Positions 35,450 to 52,167 of a DNA stretch of 64,000 nucleotides are shown one piece after another. The position numbers and the translations under genes are program-made. This DNA comes from Escherichia coli (GTDB lineage Bacteria; Pseudomonadota; Gammaproteobacteria; Enterobacterales; Enterobacteriaceae). Each line of letters starts with the position of its first letter. The stretch's first letter is position 1. The stretch lies in NCBI RefSeq assembly GCF_003018235.1, contig NZ_CP027437.1; one strand, 5' to 3'. The notes under the pieces are model-generated. The model saw only the letters and a list, made by a program, of their open reading frames with translations, was not told the DNA's origin and made no database searches.

Positions 35450-35908
35450 CGTCTGCGCAGATCGTTAGATTCGGCAACATTGTAACTGGATAAGGAATAG
35501 AAAACCTTGGAATTTTAAGAAGAAACTGATTGATCGATTATTTAACGAGCGAACACATCCATACACCCCAGACGGGTACTACGACAAAGGCCATGAAATA
35601 AGTAACTTTTGCTTGAATGTTTTGCATTTCGCTTCCTTAGCAGTCCGATAAGTACTGTCTGCTCATCCAACCTAACGAATGTAGATCAGAATGACAAGTC
35701 TTTCGCGCTAATTTCAATTTGATATCTGTTCGTAAACATGATGGCGCGAAATATTACGCATGAAGTGCTTCTACATCAACATAAAAGTTACTTTTTTTGT
35801 GTTCACAGCATGTAAAGTAAAAGCCCCGCACGATGGCGAGGCTGTTAATTCTTTGTCGACCAACAAAGCTATGGCGACGATATCAGATTTACATGAAATA
35901 TAAGCGTT
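35450..35908 (-). promoter_or_regulatory. Probable late promoter / Q-utilisation region between Q-like gene and lysis cassette
   Basis: Long non-coding AT-rich gap in the position of lambda PR'-qut; no specific site assigned. Confidence 0.3.
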
Positions 35909-39583: not shown

Positions 39584-41110
39584 TCAAAAATAAACCTCAC
39601 CATCAACCATATATTTGAGAGTACTTATCGCCTGCCGGGCGGATATTGTTTTCATTAAAGGATAGTGTTTAAAAACAATGCCATTCATAAAATAGATATC
39701 ACAGGTTTTATTATCTGTATTGATTATGATTTTTTCGAATGTTTTATAGGCAAGTGTACGACATAGCTCTCGCCCATTTTTACTGGTTAAGTCAATAGCA
39801 TGAAAATCACCAAGTGAGCTCACCGCTTTACTCTTCAAAGTTTTTAATGATACAGAAGCCCTTCGTAATTCCTTATCTAATACTCTGATTTTTTCTGCTA
39901 TAGCGGTAACTTCAGGCGCAACAGATAATGCAGCAATTAAATTATTAATTTTCATATGGAGCTCAATAATTCTCAACTCTAAAGTTTCATTAGCATCTTT
40001 CTTGTTTTCAACTGGTTGGATTTTACTACAATTAAAAAGCAACTCATTAATGATATTATAATCAACCAAATCTCTCTTTATTGATGGCCTGCCACATCGA
40101 TGCAGTCTTCTCATCGGACAAACATAATAGCCATGCAAACTTCCAGATACCGCATGAACAATCATGGTATTACCACAAGCCTCGCACTTCATAACTGTTC
40201 GAAGTAGATTTATCAACATAGGATTTTTGCTACTATTGCTAATACCAAAAGGTGCCAACCGAATTTCCTGCACAGCGTAAAACAAATCATCTGATATGAC
40301 TCTGGGATAATAGCCAGCGATTTCACTTATTCCTTTACCTCTTGCACGATATGAAGGTACGCATATACCTATCAGAGCTTTATTCGCTAATAATTTTTCA
40401 ATTACAGAAGGCCCCCATGCACTTTCTTTTCCTGAGAAATTCTTTACAGCATGATCATTTAAATACTTGGCTATTGCATTCAATGAGCGCCTTTCCATCC
40501 TGAGTTTAAAAATTAGCTCAATAGTTTTCACCCTGTCGGGGTCTGGAACAAAAGCCGTTCTTTTGTCATCTAAGGAGAGCCATCTCGGACAAGACGCCGT
40601 CATAATCGTACCTGATTCCAGTGCATCCTGCCGTTTTTTCTTCCATGATAATTTAACCCGACTTGACTTTATCTCGCTTTCTTCATTTGCCCTTTGTGCT
40701 ATAAGTATGGCTTTTATTAATGAATATGGCTCATTCAAAGAGTCAATATTATAGACTGTATTGTCGCAAAGAGTTATAACATCAATACCGTGATTCAAAA
40801 TCAATTTCAGACGTTCAATCGCTTCACCGACTTTTTCTCTTGAAAGTCTGTCCAGACTTTCAACTAACAATGTAGTTCCTGGCAATATATAACCATGCTC
40901 TATAGCATCTAAAAATTCCGAAAAAGCTCCTGATTGTGCATGCTTTCCTTTGAATGCACTTAATCCTAAATCTTCATATGTTATGGTATCAAGATAATAA
41001 TCACTATTTACCTTTAACCATTCAGCAATAAGTCTTCTCTGTCGGTTTAATGAGTCGCCAGACATCTGACCTGGTGATGAAAATCGCATATATGCTATGG
41101 CTTTTTTCAT
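39584..41110 (-). CDS. ybcK: Large serine recombinase (YbcK-like, 508 aa)
   Basis: N-terminal resolvase catalytic region (AIAYMRFSSPGQ…SLDRLSR) and C-terminal Cys-rich zinc ribbon; size equals DLP12 YbcK. Confidence 0.8.
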   Translation of the reverse strand: MKKAIAYMRFSSPGQMSGDSLNRQRRLIAEWLKVNSDYYLDTITYEDLGLSAFKGKHAQSGAFSEFLDAIEHGYILPGTTLLVESLDRLSREKVGEAIERLKLILNHGIDVITLCDNTVYNIDSLNEPYSLIKAILIAQRANEESEIKSSRVKLSWKKKRQDALESGTIMTASCPRWLSLDDKRTAFVPDPDRVKTIELIFKLRMERRSLNAIAKYLNDHAVKNFSGKESAWGPSVIEKLLANKALIGICVPSYRARGKGISEIAGYYPRVISDDLFYAVQEIRLAPFGISNSSKNPMLINLLRTVMKCEACGNTMIVHAVSGSLHGYYVCPMRRLHRCGRPSIKRDLVDYNIINELLFNCSKIQPVENKKDANETLELRIIELHMKINNLIAALSVAPEVTAIAEKIRVLDKELRRASVSLKTLKSKAVSSLGDFHAIDLTSKNGRELCRTLAYKTFEKIIINTDNKTCDIYFMNGIVFKHYPLMKTISARQAISTLKYMVDGEVYF

Positions 41111-41364
41111 GGTGACACCTGCTAACGTATGCTTTTATAAACCTTAGTGGCGAGATATAATTTTTGTTTAATTTTTATTTAAAAAGACAATTAAGGTCAC
41201 ATTATCTTGAATATACAACAATAATCGTATTGCAATTTTCTTACGCCATAATCTTGAAAGCACAAAAGAATACATAAAAAATAAAGACATTAACAAAAAG
41301 CATAAAACGAGGCTCATATAAATATAAGAGCCTCCATATTTTAGTCGTTTAGAAACAAATTATT

Positions 41365-41697
41365 TTAATGTGGTGTGCTTCGTGACAATAAATTAATAAC
41401 CAACACACCGGCACAAATCAACATCATGCCTATAATGGCTGGCAGGTCCAGCCGTTGGCCGAAAAATCCCCATGACAGTAAGCTAATCAGGACAATACCG
41501 ACTCCTGACCAGATAGCATAAGCAATCCCTGTAGGAATATAAGCCAGCGTCTGAGCTAATAACCAGAATGATGCACAATAACAAATAATTGTACCAACAG
41601 ATGGCCATAACCGTGTAAAACCTTCTGAAAACTTCATTAAGGTTGTACCAATGACCTCTGCAAGTATTGCACCACCAAGATAAATATAAGGATTCAT
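41365..41697 (-). CDS. emrE: SMR-family multidrug efflux protein EmrE
   Basis: 110-aa four-TM protein starting MNPYIYLGGAILAEVIGTTLMK; matches EmrE. Confidence 0.9.
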   Translation of the reverse strand: MNPYIYLGGAILAEVIGTTLMKFSEGFTRLWPSVGTIICYCASFWLLAQTLAYIPTGIAYAIWSGVGIVLISLLSWGFFGQRLDLPAIIGMMLICAGVLVINLLSRSTPH

Positions 41698-41764
41698 AGC
41701 ATATTCTTTCCTGTTCAAACTGGAGAGAATTGTACTACAGTTTGAACTCAACTCACCTGTTTCA

Positions 41765-44386: not shown

Positions 44387-44617
44387 TTAAGCTGCGTTCT
44401 TTTCAGTGTGTGGAAACAACTTCGGAAGATCCGGGCGAATCTGGTATGCCTTCACTACTCCACCAGTAGCCGTAACAATGCTGCCGACATGTTCAGGGGA
44501 TACCTTTGCTTTGTTGTGAAGCCACTTATAGACGGCCTGCTGTGAAACTTCGCAGGCAGCGCCTAGTTTCTTTTGTGAACCAACGATATTGATCGCTGTT
44601 TTGATGGCTGGGTTCAT
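44387..44617 (-). CDS. Cro-like HTH DNA-binding protein (YdaS-like)
   Basis: 76-aa ORF divergent from cI with HTH (QKKLGAACEVSQQAVYKW). Confidence 0.7.
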   Translation of the reverse strand: MNPAIKTAINIVGSQKKLGAACEVSQQAVYKWLHNKAKVSPEHVGSIVTATGGVVKAYQIRPDLPKLFPHTEKNAA

Positions 44618-44721
44618 AACAACCTCCGTGGTTAATTTGAATCAAGATTAAAACCATGGTTGTTTTTAGTCAACAACCATTTTCGTTTGATGAAATAAAA
44701 CCTTGGTTGTACATTTGGACT
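44618..44721. promoter_or_regulatory. Divergent immunity promoter/operator region (OR-like) with three related operator sites
   Basis: AAAACCATGGTTGTTTT (about 44650-44666), CAACAACCATTTT (about 44671-44683), AAAACCTTGGTTGTACA (about 44697-44713) share the CAACCA/TGGTTG half-site. Confidence 0.6.
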
Positions 44722-45411
44722 ATGAAAACAACACTCTCAGAAAGACTTAAAGAAGCCAGATTAGCGCGAGGCCTTACACAAAAGGCGCTTGGGGATTTGG
44801 TCGGGGTTAGCCAAGCAGCTATTCAGAAAATCGAAACAGGGAAAGCTAACCAAACAACTAAAATCGTGGAGATCGCGAACGCTTTGGGTGTGCGCGCAGA
44901 ATGGTTATCTTCTGGCGTTGGAAATATGTCAGACAGTACAGTGCAACCAATACAAACAACTGTCAGCCATTCCAAATACTTTAAGATTGACGTTCTTGAT
45001 ATCGAAGTGAGTGCCGGGCCGGGAGTCATCAACCGTGAGTTTGTAGAAGTTCTACGCTCGGTTGAGTACTCGTTTGACGATGCTCGTCACATGTTCGATG
45101 GTAGGAAGGCAGAAAATATCCGCATCATTAACGTACGCGGTGACAGCATGTCAGGAACGATTGAACCTGGTGATCTTCTATTCGTTGATATCACGGTTAA
45201 ATCTTTCGACGGTGATGGTATCTATGCGTTTCTGTACGACGACACAGCCCATGTAAAGCGCCTGCAAATGATGAAGGATAAGCTGCTGGTTATCTCTGAT
45301 AACAAAAGCTACTCACCGTGGGACCCGATCGAGAAAGATGAGATGAACCGGGTATTTATCTTCGGGAAAGTTATTGGGAGCATGCCGCAGACGTATAGGA
45401 AGCATGGATAG
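44722..45411 (+). CDS. CI-like repressor (N-terminal HTH, C-terminal LexA/S24 autopeptidase domain)
   Basis: HTH (LTQKALGDLVGVSQAAIQKIETG) and S24 catalytic region (GDSMSG…, …HVKRL); start at MKTTLSERL chosen over the upstream in-frame TTG/ATG. Confidence 0.85.
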   Translation: MKTTLSERLKEARLARGLTQKALGDLVGVSQAAIQKIETGKANQTTKIVEIANALGVRAEWLSSGVGNMSDSTVQPIQTTVSHSKYFKIDVLDIEVSAGPGVINREFVEVLRSVEYSFDDARHMFDGRKAENIRIINVRGDSMSGTIEPGDLLFVDITVKSFDGDGIYAFLYDDTAHVKRLQMMKDKLLVISDNKSYSPWDPIEKDEMNRVFIFGKVIGSMPQTYRKHG

Positions 45412-45479
45412 TACCAATTAAAAATTATCAACCGGGCATTGTGCTCATTCAGTAAAACAACTTAATTATTCATTTTAGA

Positions 45480-46553
45480 ATGGAGAACTTAATGGATACT
45501 TTAAAATATGAGAAATTCTCTGATTTTGATCACAATGACCCATTTTTTGACTCTTTAAAAAAAGATTATAAAGAGTTTCCTCTTTGGTTAGAAAAAAAAG
45601 CCAGAGAAGGAGAATCAGCTTATGTGCTCTATGATGACAAGCATAAAATCGAAGGTTTTATGTATCTAAAAGAAAATGATGATGCAAATGACATTAATCC
45701 AGCGCTCCCACCAGGACGTCATCTAAAGATAGGAACATTCAAATTTGAATCTAAAGGCACCCTTCGCGGACAACGATTTCTAAAAAAAGCGTTTGACCAT
45801 GCATTTTCATCAAAATCTGATGATATTTATGTTACTGTTTTCGACAAACACGTCCATCTAATAAAACTTTTCCAAACGTACGGATTTTACATTCATGGTG
45901 AAAAAGAAACACATAACGGGAAAGAGTTTGTATATGCGAGGTCTTTGCATGAGCCTTATGGTGATATTTTATTAGATTACCCTCGAATAATGACATCAAG
46001 GGCCAACAAATATTTACTGGCGATTTATCCCGAATATCACACTAGACTATTCCCTGATTCAAAACTTGTAAATGAATCACCAGATATTGTCAAAGATATA
46101 TCCCATGCTAACAGCATTCATAAAATTTACATATGTGGAATGCGTTCTGTGATGGGAATGAAAAGAGGAGATATCATTGTCATCTATAGAACCGGAGACA
46201 AAAAAGGGCCAGCTCGCTATCGTTCTGTAGCCAGTACATTATGTGTAGTTGAGAGCGTAAAAAATATTTCTGAATTTTTAAGCGAAGATAGTTTTGTAGA
46301 CTATTGTATTCGTTTTAGCGTATTTTCTGAAGATGAACTCAGAAAAATCTATAAAGAACGTCGATACCCTTTCATTATAAGATTCACATACAATCTGTCT
46401 TTGCCAAAGAGACCCAATCGTGCTATTTTAATAGATCATGTGGGGCTAAATGGTTCGCGTGCATTCCGATGGAGTCACTTTAAACTCACAAATGAGCAGT
46501 TCTTAAAGATCATCGAGTTAGGCAAGATAAATGAAAGTTTTATTATCCATTAA
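45480..46553 (+). CDS. Hypothetical two-domain protein: N-terminal GNAT-like acyltransferase fold, C-terminal PUA/ASCH/EVE-like domain (357 aa)
   Basis: Pattern resembling GNAT motifs (…IGTFKFESKGTLRGQRFLKKAFDHAF…LIKLFQTYGFYIHG…); C-terminal half has a KRGDIIVIYRTGD segment reminiscent of PUA-like beta barrels; strongly AT-rich. Confidence 0.5.
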   Translation: MENLMDTLKYEKFSDFDHNDPFFDSLKKDYKEFPLWLEKKAREGESAYVLYDDKHKIEGFMYLKENDDANDINPALPPGRHLKIGTFKFESKGTLRGQRFLKKAFDHAFSSKSDDIYVTVFDKHVHLIKLFQTYGFYIHGEKETHNGKEFVYARSLHEPYGDILLDYPRIMTSRANKYLLAIYPEYHTRLFPDSKLVNESPDIVKDISHANSIHKIYICGMRSVMGMKRGDIIVIYRTGDKKGPARYRSVASTLCVVESVKNISEFLSEDSFVDYCIRFSVFSEDELRKIYKERRYPFIIRFTYNLSLPKRPNRAILIDHVGLNGSRAFRWSHFKLTNEQFLKIIELGKINESFIIH

Positions 46554-46908
46554 GCCTGAGTTTGCAGAAAAAATATTGAACGGAACAAAGCGGTTCGAGT
46601 TTCGTAAAGGTATATTCAAAAATCCGCAAATTAGCACCGTTGTTATTTATGCCACGATGCCATTAGGTAAAGTTGTTGGTCAATTCCGTATTGAATCAAT
46701 ACTAAGTGACGAACCGGAATCTCTTTGGAAAAAGACGGAAAAACACGCAGGTATTTCTAAGCAATTTTATGACTCATATTATTCAGGTAGAGAAAAGGCC
46801 TACGCAATAAAAATTGGTGAAGTGGAAAGATATAAAGAACCAATTCCTATCTCTGCTCTAGGTAGTAATATTAAGCCACCACAATCATATCTTTACCTAC
46901 CTGCGTAA
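46531..46908 (+). CDS. ASCH-domain protein (125 aa)
   Basis: MKVLLSIKPEFAEKILNGTKRFEFRK… is the characteristic ASCH N-terminal beta strand/helix signature; overlaps the preceding gene by 23 nt. Confidence 0.6.
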   Translation: MKVLLSIKPEFAEKILNGTKRFEFRKGIFKNPQISTVVIYATMPLGKVVGQFRIESILSDEPESLWKKTEKHAGISKQFYDSYYSGREKAYAIKIGEVERYKEPIPISALGSNIKPPQSYLYLPA

Positions 46909-47039
46909 GAATCCCGGCCACCGTGCCGGGTTTTCTTTTATCCCCTCCCCTCATCACATATACCGTTCAAAAAACCACCACAATCTCCCTTCAGTTATCG
47001 CTATGCGATGCAAGTCACAAAATAAACCCATCCTAAATA

Positions 47040-47130
47040 CAACCAGTTACATCTAAAACAACCAATAAAACAACTTTTGTTGTTGACGATAAAACAACTA
47101 TAGTTTTAAATAAATTCATCGCAACAACAC
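47040..47130. promoter_or_regulatory. OL/PL-like operator-promoter region
   Basis: Repeated AAAACAAC(C) operator-like motifs including the inverted repeat AACAACTTTTGTTGTT and a TTGACG -35-like hexamer; same half-site as the OR region. Confidence 0.5.
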
Positions 47131-47184
47131 AACGATACGGCAACCACCTGATTCACCGTTGCGATGACCGCTTAGATCCGCAGC

Positions 47185-47595
47185 TTGAATTTCAGCAGGC
47201 TCCGGGGAGTGCGAGGGGTGAAGCGGACGCGTGAACGTCGGTGTGACCAGCTGAAATCAACTCAACACTTCATACCTCAGTCGCTTCAACGAGGCGGCTT
47301 AGTTATGACAACCGGCGGCCATCCACCGCCTGAATACGCGCAGAAGTCTCCATATGTTCAGCAGCCCAGCTTACGGGCAGGAGTTTTTATGGTTCATCAA
47401 CATTATGGAACGCAGACCGTTAATCGAGGTGCGGTCATGCCAGGAATGCTGGTCAAACACAAAGATGGTACCTGGACTGCATCAGCTAATTTACGCGGAC
47501 GGCTTTATCTGCATCGCGGCATCGAGCGCACTTATACCCGTGATTTGCTCGTGGAAGTTTTTCTCGACGGACGCGGTAACGGCCTGAATCACTAA
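47185..47595 (+). CDS. Hypothetical early-left protein with N-terminal arginine-rich motif (possible N/Nun-like antiterminator); start uncertain
   Basis: N-terminus [15 protein letters not shown] resembles an ARM; first ORF downstream of the PL-like region. Confidence 0.3.
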
Positions 47596-52090: not shown

Positions 52091-52167
52091 TGGCGCGCCC
52101 TGCAGGATTCGAACCTGCGGCCCACGACTTAGAAGGTCGTTGCTCTATCCAACTGAGCTAAGGGCGC
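52091..52167 (-). tRNA. argU: tRNA-Arg (anticodon UCU)
   Basis: Reverse complement reads GCGCCCTTAGCTCAGTTGGATAGAGCAACGACCTTCTAAGTCGTGGGCCGCAGGTTCGAATCCTGCAGGGCGCGCCA: cloverleaf with TCT anticodon and CCA end. Confidence 0.93.

Follow-up and report, generated by a model that had tools for sequence, protein, structure and literature searches.

The GevT/GevA (PDC-M11) gene pair in the repressor operon of an Escherichia coli lambdoid prophage: a GNAT–PUA-like protein coupled to a GKER-class ASCH protein, and a candidate toxin-antidote module

Here, we describe a two-gene cassette, gevT–gevA, that rides in the repressor operon of a lambdoid prophage probably integrated at the argU tRNA site of Escherichia coli (contig NZ_CP027437.1 of assembly GCF_003018235.1); the 64,000-nt stretch analyzed is referred to below as the window, and positions are those of the window unless another locus is named. 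The two open reading frames (ORFs), at 45480–46553 (+, 357 aa) and 46531–46908 (+, 125 aa), overlap by 23 nt and form a pair that is already known, since PADLOC system PDC-M11, the prophage GNAT-EVE + ASCH operon, and GevT/GevA are the same thing. What is new is the definition of the exact limits of the module, a survey of the slot that it occupies, a structure-based assignment of its domains, the conservation of its GKER motif, and its connection to recent data on ASCH deacetylases. We tentatively propose, with somewhat less than even confidence, that the pair is a lysogen-expressed toxin-antidote module for phage exclusion, in which GevT would acetylate RNA and GevA would reverse or block the effect. 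Finding the pair is no discovery; the gain is a testable hypothesis, in which an acetyl writer whose reader domain is dead teams up with an ASCH eraser that is live, and for which the relevant residues can be named.

Both PDC-M11 profiles are matched by adjacent genes on one strand: GevT aligns to PDC-M11A (E-value 2.1e-133) through residues 6–356 on profile positions 10–356 of 357, and GevA aligns to PDC-M11B over its full length (6.8e-52). The same proteins match PHROG 6345 (1e-186) and PHROG 3136 (1.3e-57), respectively, and these matches establish them as real genes rather than chance ORFs. The PIN-less GNAT-EVE protein, the separate ASCH gene, and the prophage setting also correspond to an operon type in the literature: (PIN)-GNAT-EVE operons almost always include a gene for an ASCH protein, and the PIN-less form is common in beta- and gamma-proteobacterial prophages (Bell, Wolf and Koonin, 2020; PMC7641849). 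These authors predicted a toxin-antitoxin system, no component of which had been characterized experimentally as of then, and credited an earlier description to Iyer et al. 2013 (PMC7641849). DNA that is 99.4% identical to the cassette is also present in eight lambdoid phages isolated from E. coli; in one of these, PhiR47_2 (PV340567.1; 99.4% identical over 1589 nt, with GevT 100% identical by tblastn), the products are annotated as “GevT toxin” and “GevA antitoxin.” PDC-M11 has additionally been listed in one O157:H7 strain (2026 preprint), and neither DefensePredictor nor Rousset 2022 mentions GNAT or ASCH systems. An initial annotation of this DNA had reported two overlapping, AT-rich genes directly 3′ of cI and on the same strand, and had called them a candidate prophage defence system; the coordinates and base composition were confirmed, the label is a fair one, and the PADLOC check that it recommended returned PDC-M11A and PDC-M11B. 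Its view that the pairing was undescribed has to be given up in light of PDC-M11, the operon of Bell et al. 2020, and PV340567.1.

The second protein, GevA (PDC-M11B; gevA, 46531–46908, +), is the more readily classified of the two by direct search, matching Pfam ASCH (PF04266; 3.2e-8) and the Zymomonas mobilis protein ZmASCH (PDB 5GUQ/5GUS; 8e-16), as its initial assignment to the ASCH family had implied. Its octapeptide, G18-x-K20-x-x-E23-x-R25, is invariant in the family, including the copies from Salmonella phage SopEPhi, Lactobacillus prophage Lj965, and archaeal virus psiM100, and it is present in ZmASCH as well; Y40, T42, Q118, and S119 are also invariant. When the two proteins are aligned, GevA Tyr40 corresponds to ZmASCH Tyr47 and Gln118–Ser119 to ZmASCH residues 127–128, Thr42 and Arg25 are kept, and the position of ZmASCH Lys53 is taken by Gly46. 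Judged from these residues, GevA is a member of the GKER (ZmASCH-like) ASCH class, with a predicted ASCH fold and the class octapeptide, and it keeps both the putative catalytic motif and the residues with which ZmASCH binds nucleic acid. ZmASCH binds single-stranded nucleic acid (both ssDNA and ssRNA), requires Y47 and S128 to do so, and in vitro cleaves ssRNA in a Mg-dependent manner, leaving DNA intact (Kim et al., 2017; PMC5615036). More recently, 19 ASCH proteins, ZmASCH among them, were reported to strip N4-acetylcytidine (ac4C) at position 34 (ac4C34) from E. coli tRNA in vitro, with the octapeptide Lys and Glu/Thr being essential to the deacetylation (preprint 10.64898/2026.02.27.708502). 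YqfB, which had been put forward as the comparator for GevA, proved a poor choice: it represents the GK[T/S]R class, whose substrate is the free nucleoside (preprint 10.64898/2026.02.27.708502), and GevA carries Glu23 where YqfB has Thr24. GevA-like proteins are also found alone, as exemplified by ZmASCH itself (Z. mobilis locus L088, 3825–5447), which matches the PDC-M11B profile at 3e-29. The idea that ZmASCH is one half of a Gev pair in Zymomonas was considered and rejected, as the 375-aa protein encoded immediately upstream shows no similarity to GevT and no PADLOC match; a Pfam search of this neighbor was also blank.

The first protein, GevT (PDC-M11A), returned no match in a Pfam search and nothing usable in a single-sequence PDB search, and its domain assignment therefore required a family alignment and a structure model. 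Relatives are abundant (1425 at E ≤ 0.001 among 50%-identity representatives), and an alignment of 53 relatives yielded an AlphaFold (AF2) model with a predicted local distance difference test score (pLDDT) of 93.1 and a predicted template-modeling score (pTM) of 0.90. In the model, GevT is a GNAT acetyltransferase domain (approximately residues 1–152; 45492–45947, +) joined to a non-catalytic, ZmASCH-like, putatively nucleic-acid-binding PUA-like beta-barrel of the ASCH/EVE type (approximately residues 165–353; 45984–46550, +), an architecture that the initial annotation had read from the sequence and that the model bears out. Five residues of the GNAT domain (E61, K79, K84, Y113, and E145) are invariant. 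The C-terminal domain looks closest to the ZmASCH branch, and the domain labeled EVE by Bell et al. is the same one, within the same superfamily. It lacks the GxKxxExR octapeptide and keeps the conserved Tyr (Y232), and for this reason the GevT barrel looks like a reader or docking domain. Profile–profile comparison of the GevA family with the GevT C-terminal domain gave a full-length but weak alignment (22% probability, P ~1e-3), so that the shared topology is suggestive and paralogy unproven. Longer relatives of GevT are single chains with the order PIN-like–GNAT–EVE or ASCH–PIN-like–GNAT–EVE (e.g., P0205 and P0185, of 615 and 504 aa). The ASCH domain that some of them carry in addition at the N-terminus retains the complete GxKxxExR motif, although BLAST shows no likeness to GevA, and the existence of such chains ties a catalytic-type ASCH domain to the GNAT-EVE unit.

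The two genes are also bound together at the level of translation. The 84 loci compared comprise the window, annotated genome and phage matches, metagenome contigs, and 80 IMG/VR contigs; in every locus that is uncut by a contig end, the GevT-like ORF runs into a GevA-like one, with 23–35 nt shared between them. An overlap of 23 nt is annotated as such in SopEPhi, Lj965, and psiM100 and is seen in most of the related loci; in the window, the ORF list and sequence place this dual-coding segment, in which gevT ends and gevA begins, at 46531–46553 (+, ATGAAAGTTTTATTATCCATTAA). Thus, gevT and gevA are translationally coupled via a conserved overlap. A promoter scan called six sigma-70-like sites, compared to 8.0 expected from shuffled sequence, and missed the probable left promoter described below; because the scan performs no better than it does on shuffled sequence, no internal promoter for gevA is claimed.

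Comparison with diverged copies defines the limits of the mobile unit. When the window is aligned to copies lying behind other repressors (L028, L037, and L054; 69–74% nucleotide identity), DNA homology sets in at 45492, the start codon of gevT, and ceases at 46934, just beyond a terminator, so the mobile unit consists of two genes and a terminator and has no promoter of its own (45492–46934, +). The intrinsic terminator-like site that ends it (46913–46940, +), located by terminator scan and inside the conserved boundary, comprises the hairpin CCCGGC-CACCGT-GCCGGG (46913–46930; six G-C pairs) followed by TTTTCTTTT. The same comparison bears on the start of gevT, for which the initial annotation had given a length of 357 aa from ATG 45480: the ORF stands, and the length probably does not. 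Translation probably begins at ATG 45492 (Met5, yielding 353 aa; 45492–46553, +), as a GGAG Shine-Dalgarno sequence lies 6 nt upstream (45482–45485), RefSeq uses the same start, the PHROG alignment begins at residue 5, and homology to the diverged copies begins at exactly 45492. Low GC content travels with the module as well (0.37–0.39 vs. 0.47–0.52 in other enterobacterial loci). In the window, the GC content is 0.33–0.37 over 45400–46800 and 0.45–0.55 on either side; averaged over the cassette it is 0.35, compared to 0.46 upstream, 0.51 downstream, and 0.49 in the whole window. An Rfam search found no match within or near the cassette.

The position of the module predicts when it should be expressed. 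The gene just 5′ of the pair, on the same strand, is a cI-type repressor of 229 aa (44722–45411, +) with a helix-turn-helix (HTH) domain and an S24 peptidase domain, identified through PHROG 4 (“transcriptional repressor,” 8.6e-73), PHROG 6201 (“CI-like repressor,” 2e-46), and RefSeq (“S24 family peptidase”). The cI–gevT spacer is 80 nt in length (45412–45491, +), and a scan of it found no terminator-like site. From this position the cassette should be expressed in lysogens, because no terminator precedes the pair, a strong one follows it, and homology of the module begins at the ATG; the same terminator placement and homology fit co-transcription with cI, as had been surmised. Beyond the terminator lies a probable left operator and promoter region (OL/PL; 47040–47115, +), assigned by inference from a palindrome (AACAACTTTTGTTGTT, 47069–47084) and a TTGACG sequence (47083–47088). 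This palindrome shares a GTTGTT/AACAAC half-site with the palindrome of the probable right operator at 44656–44680, and it is kept in L054, whose repressor is similar. The resulting order of repressor gene, pair, terminator, and OL/PL-like region mirrors the lambda layout cI–rexA–rexB–terminator–OL/PL, and the earlier description of the site as the rexAB slot is upheld by the uninterrupted cI–gevT junction, the strong terminator after gevA, and the operator-like palindrome that lies 3′, before kil-gam-bet-exo.

The slot itself accommodates different genes. The cI-proximal survey recommended in the initial annotation was carried out by querying E. coli genomes with the two flanks of the cassette joined: the joined flanks match 2209 genomes, and in 828 of these they lie no more than approximately 850 nt apart. 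Three examples illustrate the range of occupancy, with one slot being empty, another holding a gene for a BamE-like lipoprotein, and a third encoding a 533-aa SIR2 protein (PADLOC PDC-S25) with ThsA-like SIR2 similarity. Since the occupants differ between the same flanks, the slot is a site of variable cargo that includes defence-type genes. The cassette itself is found behind two E. coli immunity alleles, between which the segment from cro through the right operator to the N-terminal part of cI is swapped and the flanks are 96–98% identical. A search of 5426 complete E. coli genomes found the cassette in 274, O157:H7 strains among them; it is always chromosomal and single-copy, with an identity of at least 99%. 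In one E. coli genome (NZ_AP022351.1, 2035652–2037855; H9), an IS1 element is inserted in gevT and gevA is intact. Truncated forms of gevT in L026 and L003 were at one point considered as decay of a toxin gene; this idea was dropped, as the lesions are scattered single-base indels that are probably sequencing errors, and many neighboring genes in L003 are frameshifted as well.

Across the loci sampled, which are mostly enterobacterial, a repressor operon is the usual setting of the pair; the taxonomic spread is drawn from phage collections and from Bell et al. The gene directly 5′ of the pair on the same strand encodes a phage repressor in 59 of the 84, a figure that includes many nearly identical copies from E. 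coli, and by sequence these repressors form four clusters, of which three are of the S24 type and the fourth is of a small, HTH-only type. A further 18 loci have the order repressor, one gene of unknown kind, GevT, GevA, and integrase, which resembles the cI–integrase hotspot of K139-like, P2-related phages (Rousset et al., 2022; PMC9122126). In two such P2-related layouts (L059, 3895–4971, and L062, 4217–4996), the protein encoded between the repressor and GevT is of 359 aa or 260 aa, neither with a PHROG match; the 260-aa protein has a weak DUF3644 match in PADLOC, and a DUF3644 gene is also present 3′ of the pair in L006. In SopEPhi (L095, 3444–4908; GevT 44% identical), the pair lies in the gpA–gpQ interval of a P2-like phage, which is the validated old/tin anti-phage hotspot of P2 (Rousset et al., 2022; PMC9122126). 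The pair of the Methanothermobacter virus psiM100 (L096, 2536–4381) consists of a 492-aa GevT relative, ORFD, and a GevA relative, ORF5, that is 41% identical to the E. coli protein; ORFD begins within the annotated “inserted fragment IFa” and runs beyond its end. In Lj965 (L094, 2807–4902), the pair is directly 3′ of four phage tRNA genes (Ser, Glu, Tyr, and Phe) and two genes before the terminase genes, a position that is suggestive of action on tRNA. In a 54%-identical, AT-rich locus, two short ORFs of 94 and 98 aa lie beyond the pair on the other strand (L078, 6572–7154, −) and, judged by eye, resemble a small toxin and an HTH antitoxin.

Taken together with the toxin-antitoxin prediction already in the literature, these folds, motifs, and placements suggest the following mechanism. 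GevT would be the toxin, its barrel docking on RNA, most likely tRNA, and its GNAT domain moving an acetyl group from acetyl-CoA to a base or an aminoacyl amine, such that translation would be blocked. GevA would be the antidote and most likely an enzymatic one, removing the acetyl group by hydrolysis, much as other members of the ASCH family act on tRNA ac4C, and it may also fill the RNA site of GevT. Translational coupling would keep the two proteins balanced in the lysogen; an infecting phage could upset that balance, upon which GevT would arrest the cell and the superinfecting phage would be excluded (abortive infection). That GevT rather than GevA is the toxin is hinted at by three weak pointers, namely the naming chosen by the depositor, the existence of orphan GevA-like genes, and the IS1 insertion that disrupts gevT with gevA left intact. 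The notion of a writer paired with an eraser was first raised in the initial annotation, and it now has a better foundation in the conserved Lys/Glu/Arg octapeptide of GevA and in the in vitro deacetylation of tRNA ac4C by 19 ASCH proteins. In its most specific form, the proposal would make this the first toxin-antidote or exclusion module based on reversible RNA-base acetylation, with GevT writing an N-acetyl mark on tRNA or another RNA through the aid of a catalytically dead ASCH-like reader and a paralogue-like, catalytically competent GevA erasing it, an RNA counterpart of DarT-DarG whose conservation would span lambdoid and P2-like phages of enterobacteria, prophages of Lactobacillus, and a virus of archaea; we regard this stronger version as doubtful.

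Several observations weigh against the toxin-antidote proposal as a whole. ac4C itself occurs naturally on tRNA as a benign mark, which makes it hard to see how its deposition could be toxic. Motif A of the GevT GNAT domain is divergent, reading K-G-T-L-R-G in place of the expected Q/R-x-x-G-x-G/A, and the domain is missed by Pfam. The pair also occurs outside repressor operons, with tail-gene and topoisomerase neighbors and, in Lj965, near terminase genes, and the 84 loci are heavily redundant, amounting to approximately 26 distinct pairs at 95% identity that are mostly enterobacterial. As for the eraser step, ZmASCH caused no decrease of ac4C in vivo and was inactive on the free nucleoside (preprint 10.64898/2026.02.27.708502). 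The PDC set comprises 145 untested candidates nominated through “guilt-by-embedding” inside BREX, DISARM, and type I restriction-modification (RM) loci (10.1101/2024.01.29.577857), and PDC systems are called “unvalidated” by other authors. A literature search for GevT/GevA, PhiR47, and GNAT-EVE found no experimental paper, and the toxin and antitoxin names are the annotation of the depositor.

The same folds could serve a toxin-antitoxin pair that works by binding, in which GevT would again be a GNAT toxin and GevA would neutralize it in stoichiometric fashion, through a complex with GevT or through occupancy of the RNA site recognized by the GevT barrel, with no hydrolysis taking place and with GxKxxExR used only for RNA binding. 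Competition for one ligand is plausible, given that GevA and the C-terminal domain of GevT share a ZmASCH-like fold and align weakly over their full length; the translational coupling would fix the stoichiometry, the fusion of ASCH, PIN, GNAT, and EVE domains in one chain hints at regulation in cis, and two residues that ZmASCH needs for nucleic-acid binding (Y47 and S128) are kept in GevA. This arrangement is nevertheless unlikely in our estimation, given that the putative catalytic Lys/Glu dyad shows no variation in copies as distant as those of E. coli and an archaeal virus. A crude AF2 model of a GevT-(GGGGS)6-GevA fusion (built from 20 paired rows plus unpaired rows, with both parts folded at a pLDDT of 90.6) reached a pTM of 0.69, compared to 0.90 for GevT alone, which is approximately the value for an unplaced GevA and comes with no predicted aligned error (PAE); the model indicates no confident interface and was uninformative as to a complex.

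A second alternative questions the defensive purpose: the pair could be an addiction module that stabilizes the prophage, or a lysogenic-conversion pair that retunes the acetylation of host RNA or tRNA for the benefit of the lysogen or of phage expression. Toxin-antitoxin pairs on mobile elements are often stabilizers, and morons expressed in lysogens are not always defensive, as the BamE-like lipoprotein found elsewhere in the same slot illustrates. The location of the Lj965 pair directly 3′ of a phage tRNA cluster is also in keeping with such a role, and the identity of at least 99% over 274 E. coli genomes agrees with recent, prophage-borne dissemination and not with diversifying selection. 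Against this, the pair recurs at two places recognized as anti-phage hotspots, one being the rex position of lambda and the other the old/tin locus of P2, a SIR2 defence candidate fills the same slot elsewhere, and the PIN-fused relatives are embedded in RM/BREX-type loci, from which the PDC set originates and in which Bell et al. observed the same association (PMC7641849). Considering both sides, we deem a non-defensive function quite unlikely.

An action on DNA, or in counter-defence, appears highly improbable. In such a scheme GevT would acetylate a DNA base or target modified nucleic acid, either to shield the phage from host restriction or to mark DNA, and GevA would read or regulate. Acetylation of DNA bases was proposed by Iyer et al., according to Bell et al., who themselves suggest that prophage GNAT-EVE proteins may guard phages from RM; elsewhere, EVE and kindred PUA-like domains have modified DNA bases as ligands (PMC7641849), and ZmASCH binds ssDNA besides ssRNA (PMC5615036). 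The cassette is, however, wired to the repressor operon of the lysogen and not to the early lytic phase, where anti-restriction is needed, the nearest ASCH relatives act on RNA or tRNA (ZmASCH leaves DNA uncleaved), and the PIN-like, RNase-type fusion in relatives points to RNA. Finally, a reversal of roles, with GevA as an effector that degrades ssRNA in the Mg-dependent manner of ZmASCH in vitro (the residues implicated being kept) and GevT as its regulator or sensor, is barely credible, given the chromosomal orphan GevA-like proteins, the lack of a GevT-like neighbor for ZmASCH, the intact gevA where IS1 breaks gevT, the naming of GevT as the toxin by the depositor, and the fact that an effector is not normally the downstream, translationally dependent gene.

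Should the writer/eraser version of the toxin-antidote proposal hold, a biological role would be in hand for ASCH domains, and the chemical repertoire of phage-host conflict would extend to the acetylation of RNA. The reach of the system adds to this interest, as approximately 5% of complete E. coli genomes hold the cassette at a position where constitutive lysogen expression is predicted, relatives occur in very distant temperate viruses, and the cassette is placed in hotspots known or suspected to carry anti-phage genes.

The remainder of the immunity region and its surroundings complete the picture of the host element. A cro-like gene (44387–44617, −), for which RefSeq and the phage with 99.4% identical DNA give the annotation Cro or transcriptional regulator, is divergent from the repressor gene. 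Between the two is a probable right operator with promoters PRM and PR (44618–44721), in which a palindrome with 9-bp arms, ATGGTTGTT-N7-AACAACCAT, putatively the operator, occupies 44656–44680. Past cro are a cII-like gene with a YdaT domain and then O, P, and ren, and on the other side, 3′ of the pair, are kil, gam, bet, and exo. No N-like antiterminator gene is present between the probable OL/PL and kil (47389–47595) or gam: the interval 47110–47389 is a leader of approximately 280 nt with no convincing ORF, the early-left operon runs directly into kil-gam-bet-exo, and the immunity region is of the Rac type (YdaS/YdaT-like). A tRNA-Arg gene with anticodon UCU, of the argU type (52091–52167, −), probably marks the attachment site of the prophage and one of its ends, because excisionase and integrase genes lie 3′ of exo in the 99.4% identical copies. 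On the side of the repressor region facing away from this tRNA gene, Rfam identifies the Hfq-binding small RNA isrJ (RF01393) at 35820–35893 (−), scoring 64.9 bits where the gathering score is 37. Another AT-rich stretch (GC content 0.30–0.40) extends over approximately 40000–41700 and contains, by annotation transfer from the 99.4% identical phage, an emrE-like small multidrug resistance (SMR) efflux gene (approximately 41365–41697, −) and a gene for a YbcK-like protein.

Among characterized relatives and systems, ZmASCH is a sequence homologue of GevA, but it is an orphan with no GevT partner. The lambda rexA-rexB genes and sieB of P22 and Rac are alike in position and wiring, being 3′ of the repressor gene on the same strand, before OL/PL, and closed by a terminator; lambda rexAB is co-transcribed with cI, and RexB is a membrane protein. 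The likeness to RexAB and SieB is nevertheless purely positional, with no kinship in sequence or fold, as the Gev proteins have soluble, enzyme-type folds by model and homology, and a PADLOC search of the pair at E ≤ 1 returned PDC-M11 models only and no RexA or RexB homology. The TacAT, AtaRT, KacAT, and ItaRT systems have a GNAT-fold toxin, as is predicted for GevT, and the translation apparatus or tRNA is a plausible target in common. In these systems, whose toxins acetylate the amine of aminoacyl-tRNA, the antitoxin is a DNA-binding protein of the ribbon-helix-helix (RHH)/DUF1778 type that is encoded upstream, and the toxin has no RNA-binding barrel; in the Gev pair, by contrast, the partner is an ASCH protein encoded downstream and GevT carries a PUA-like domain, and an NCBIfam search found no GNAT-toxin family among the matches. 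DarT-DarG offers a parallel in design: DarT ADP-ribosylates DNA, and DarG is a macrodomain hydrolase. Although the chemistry, folds, and target differ—Gev would rely on GNAT acetylation, probably of RNA, and on an ASCH domain, with enzymatic reversal being a proposal—the logic suggested here is the same, in that the gene for a transferase toxin comes first and that for a mark-removing hydrolase second.

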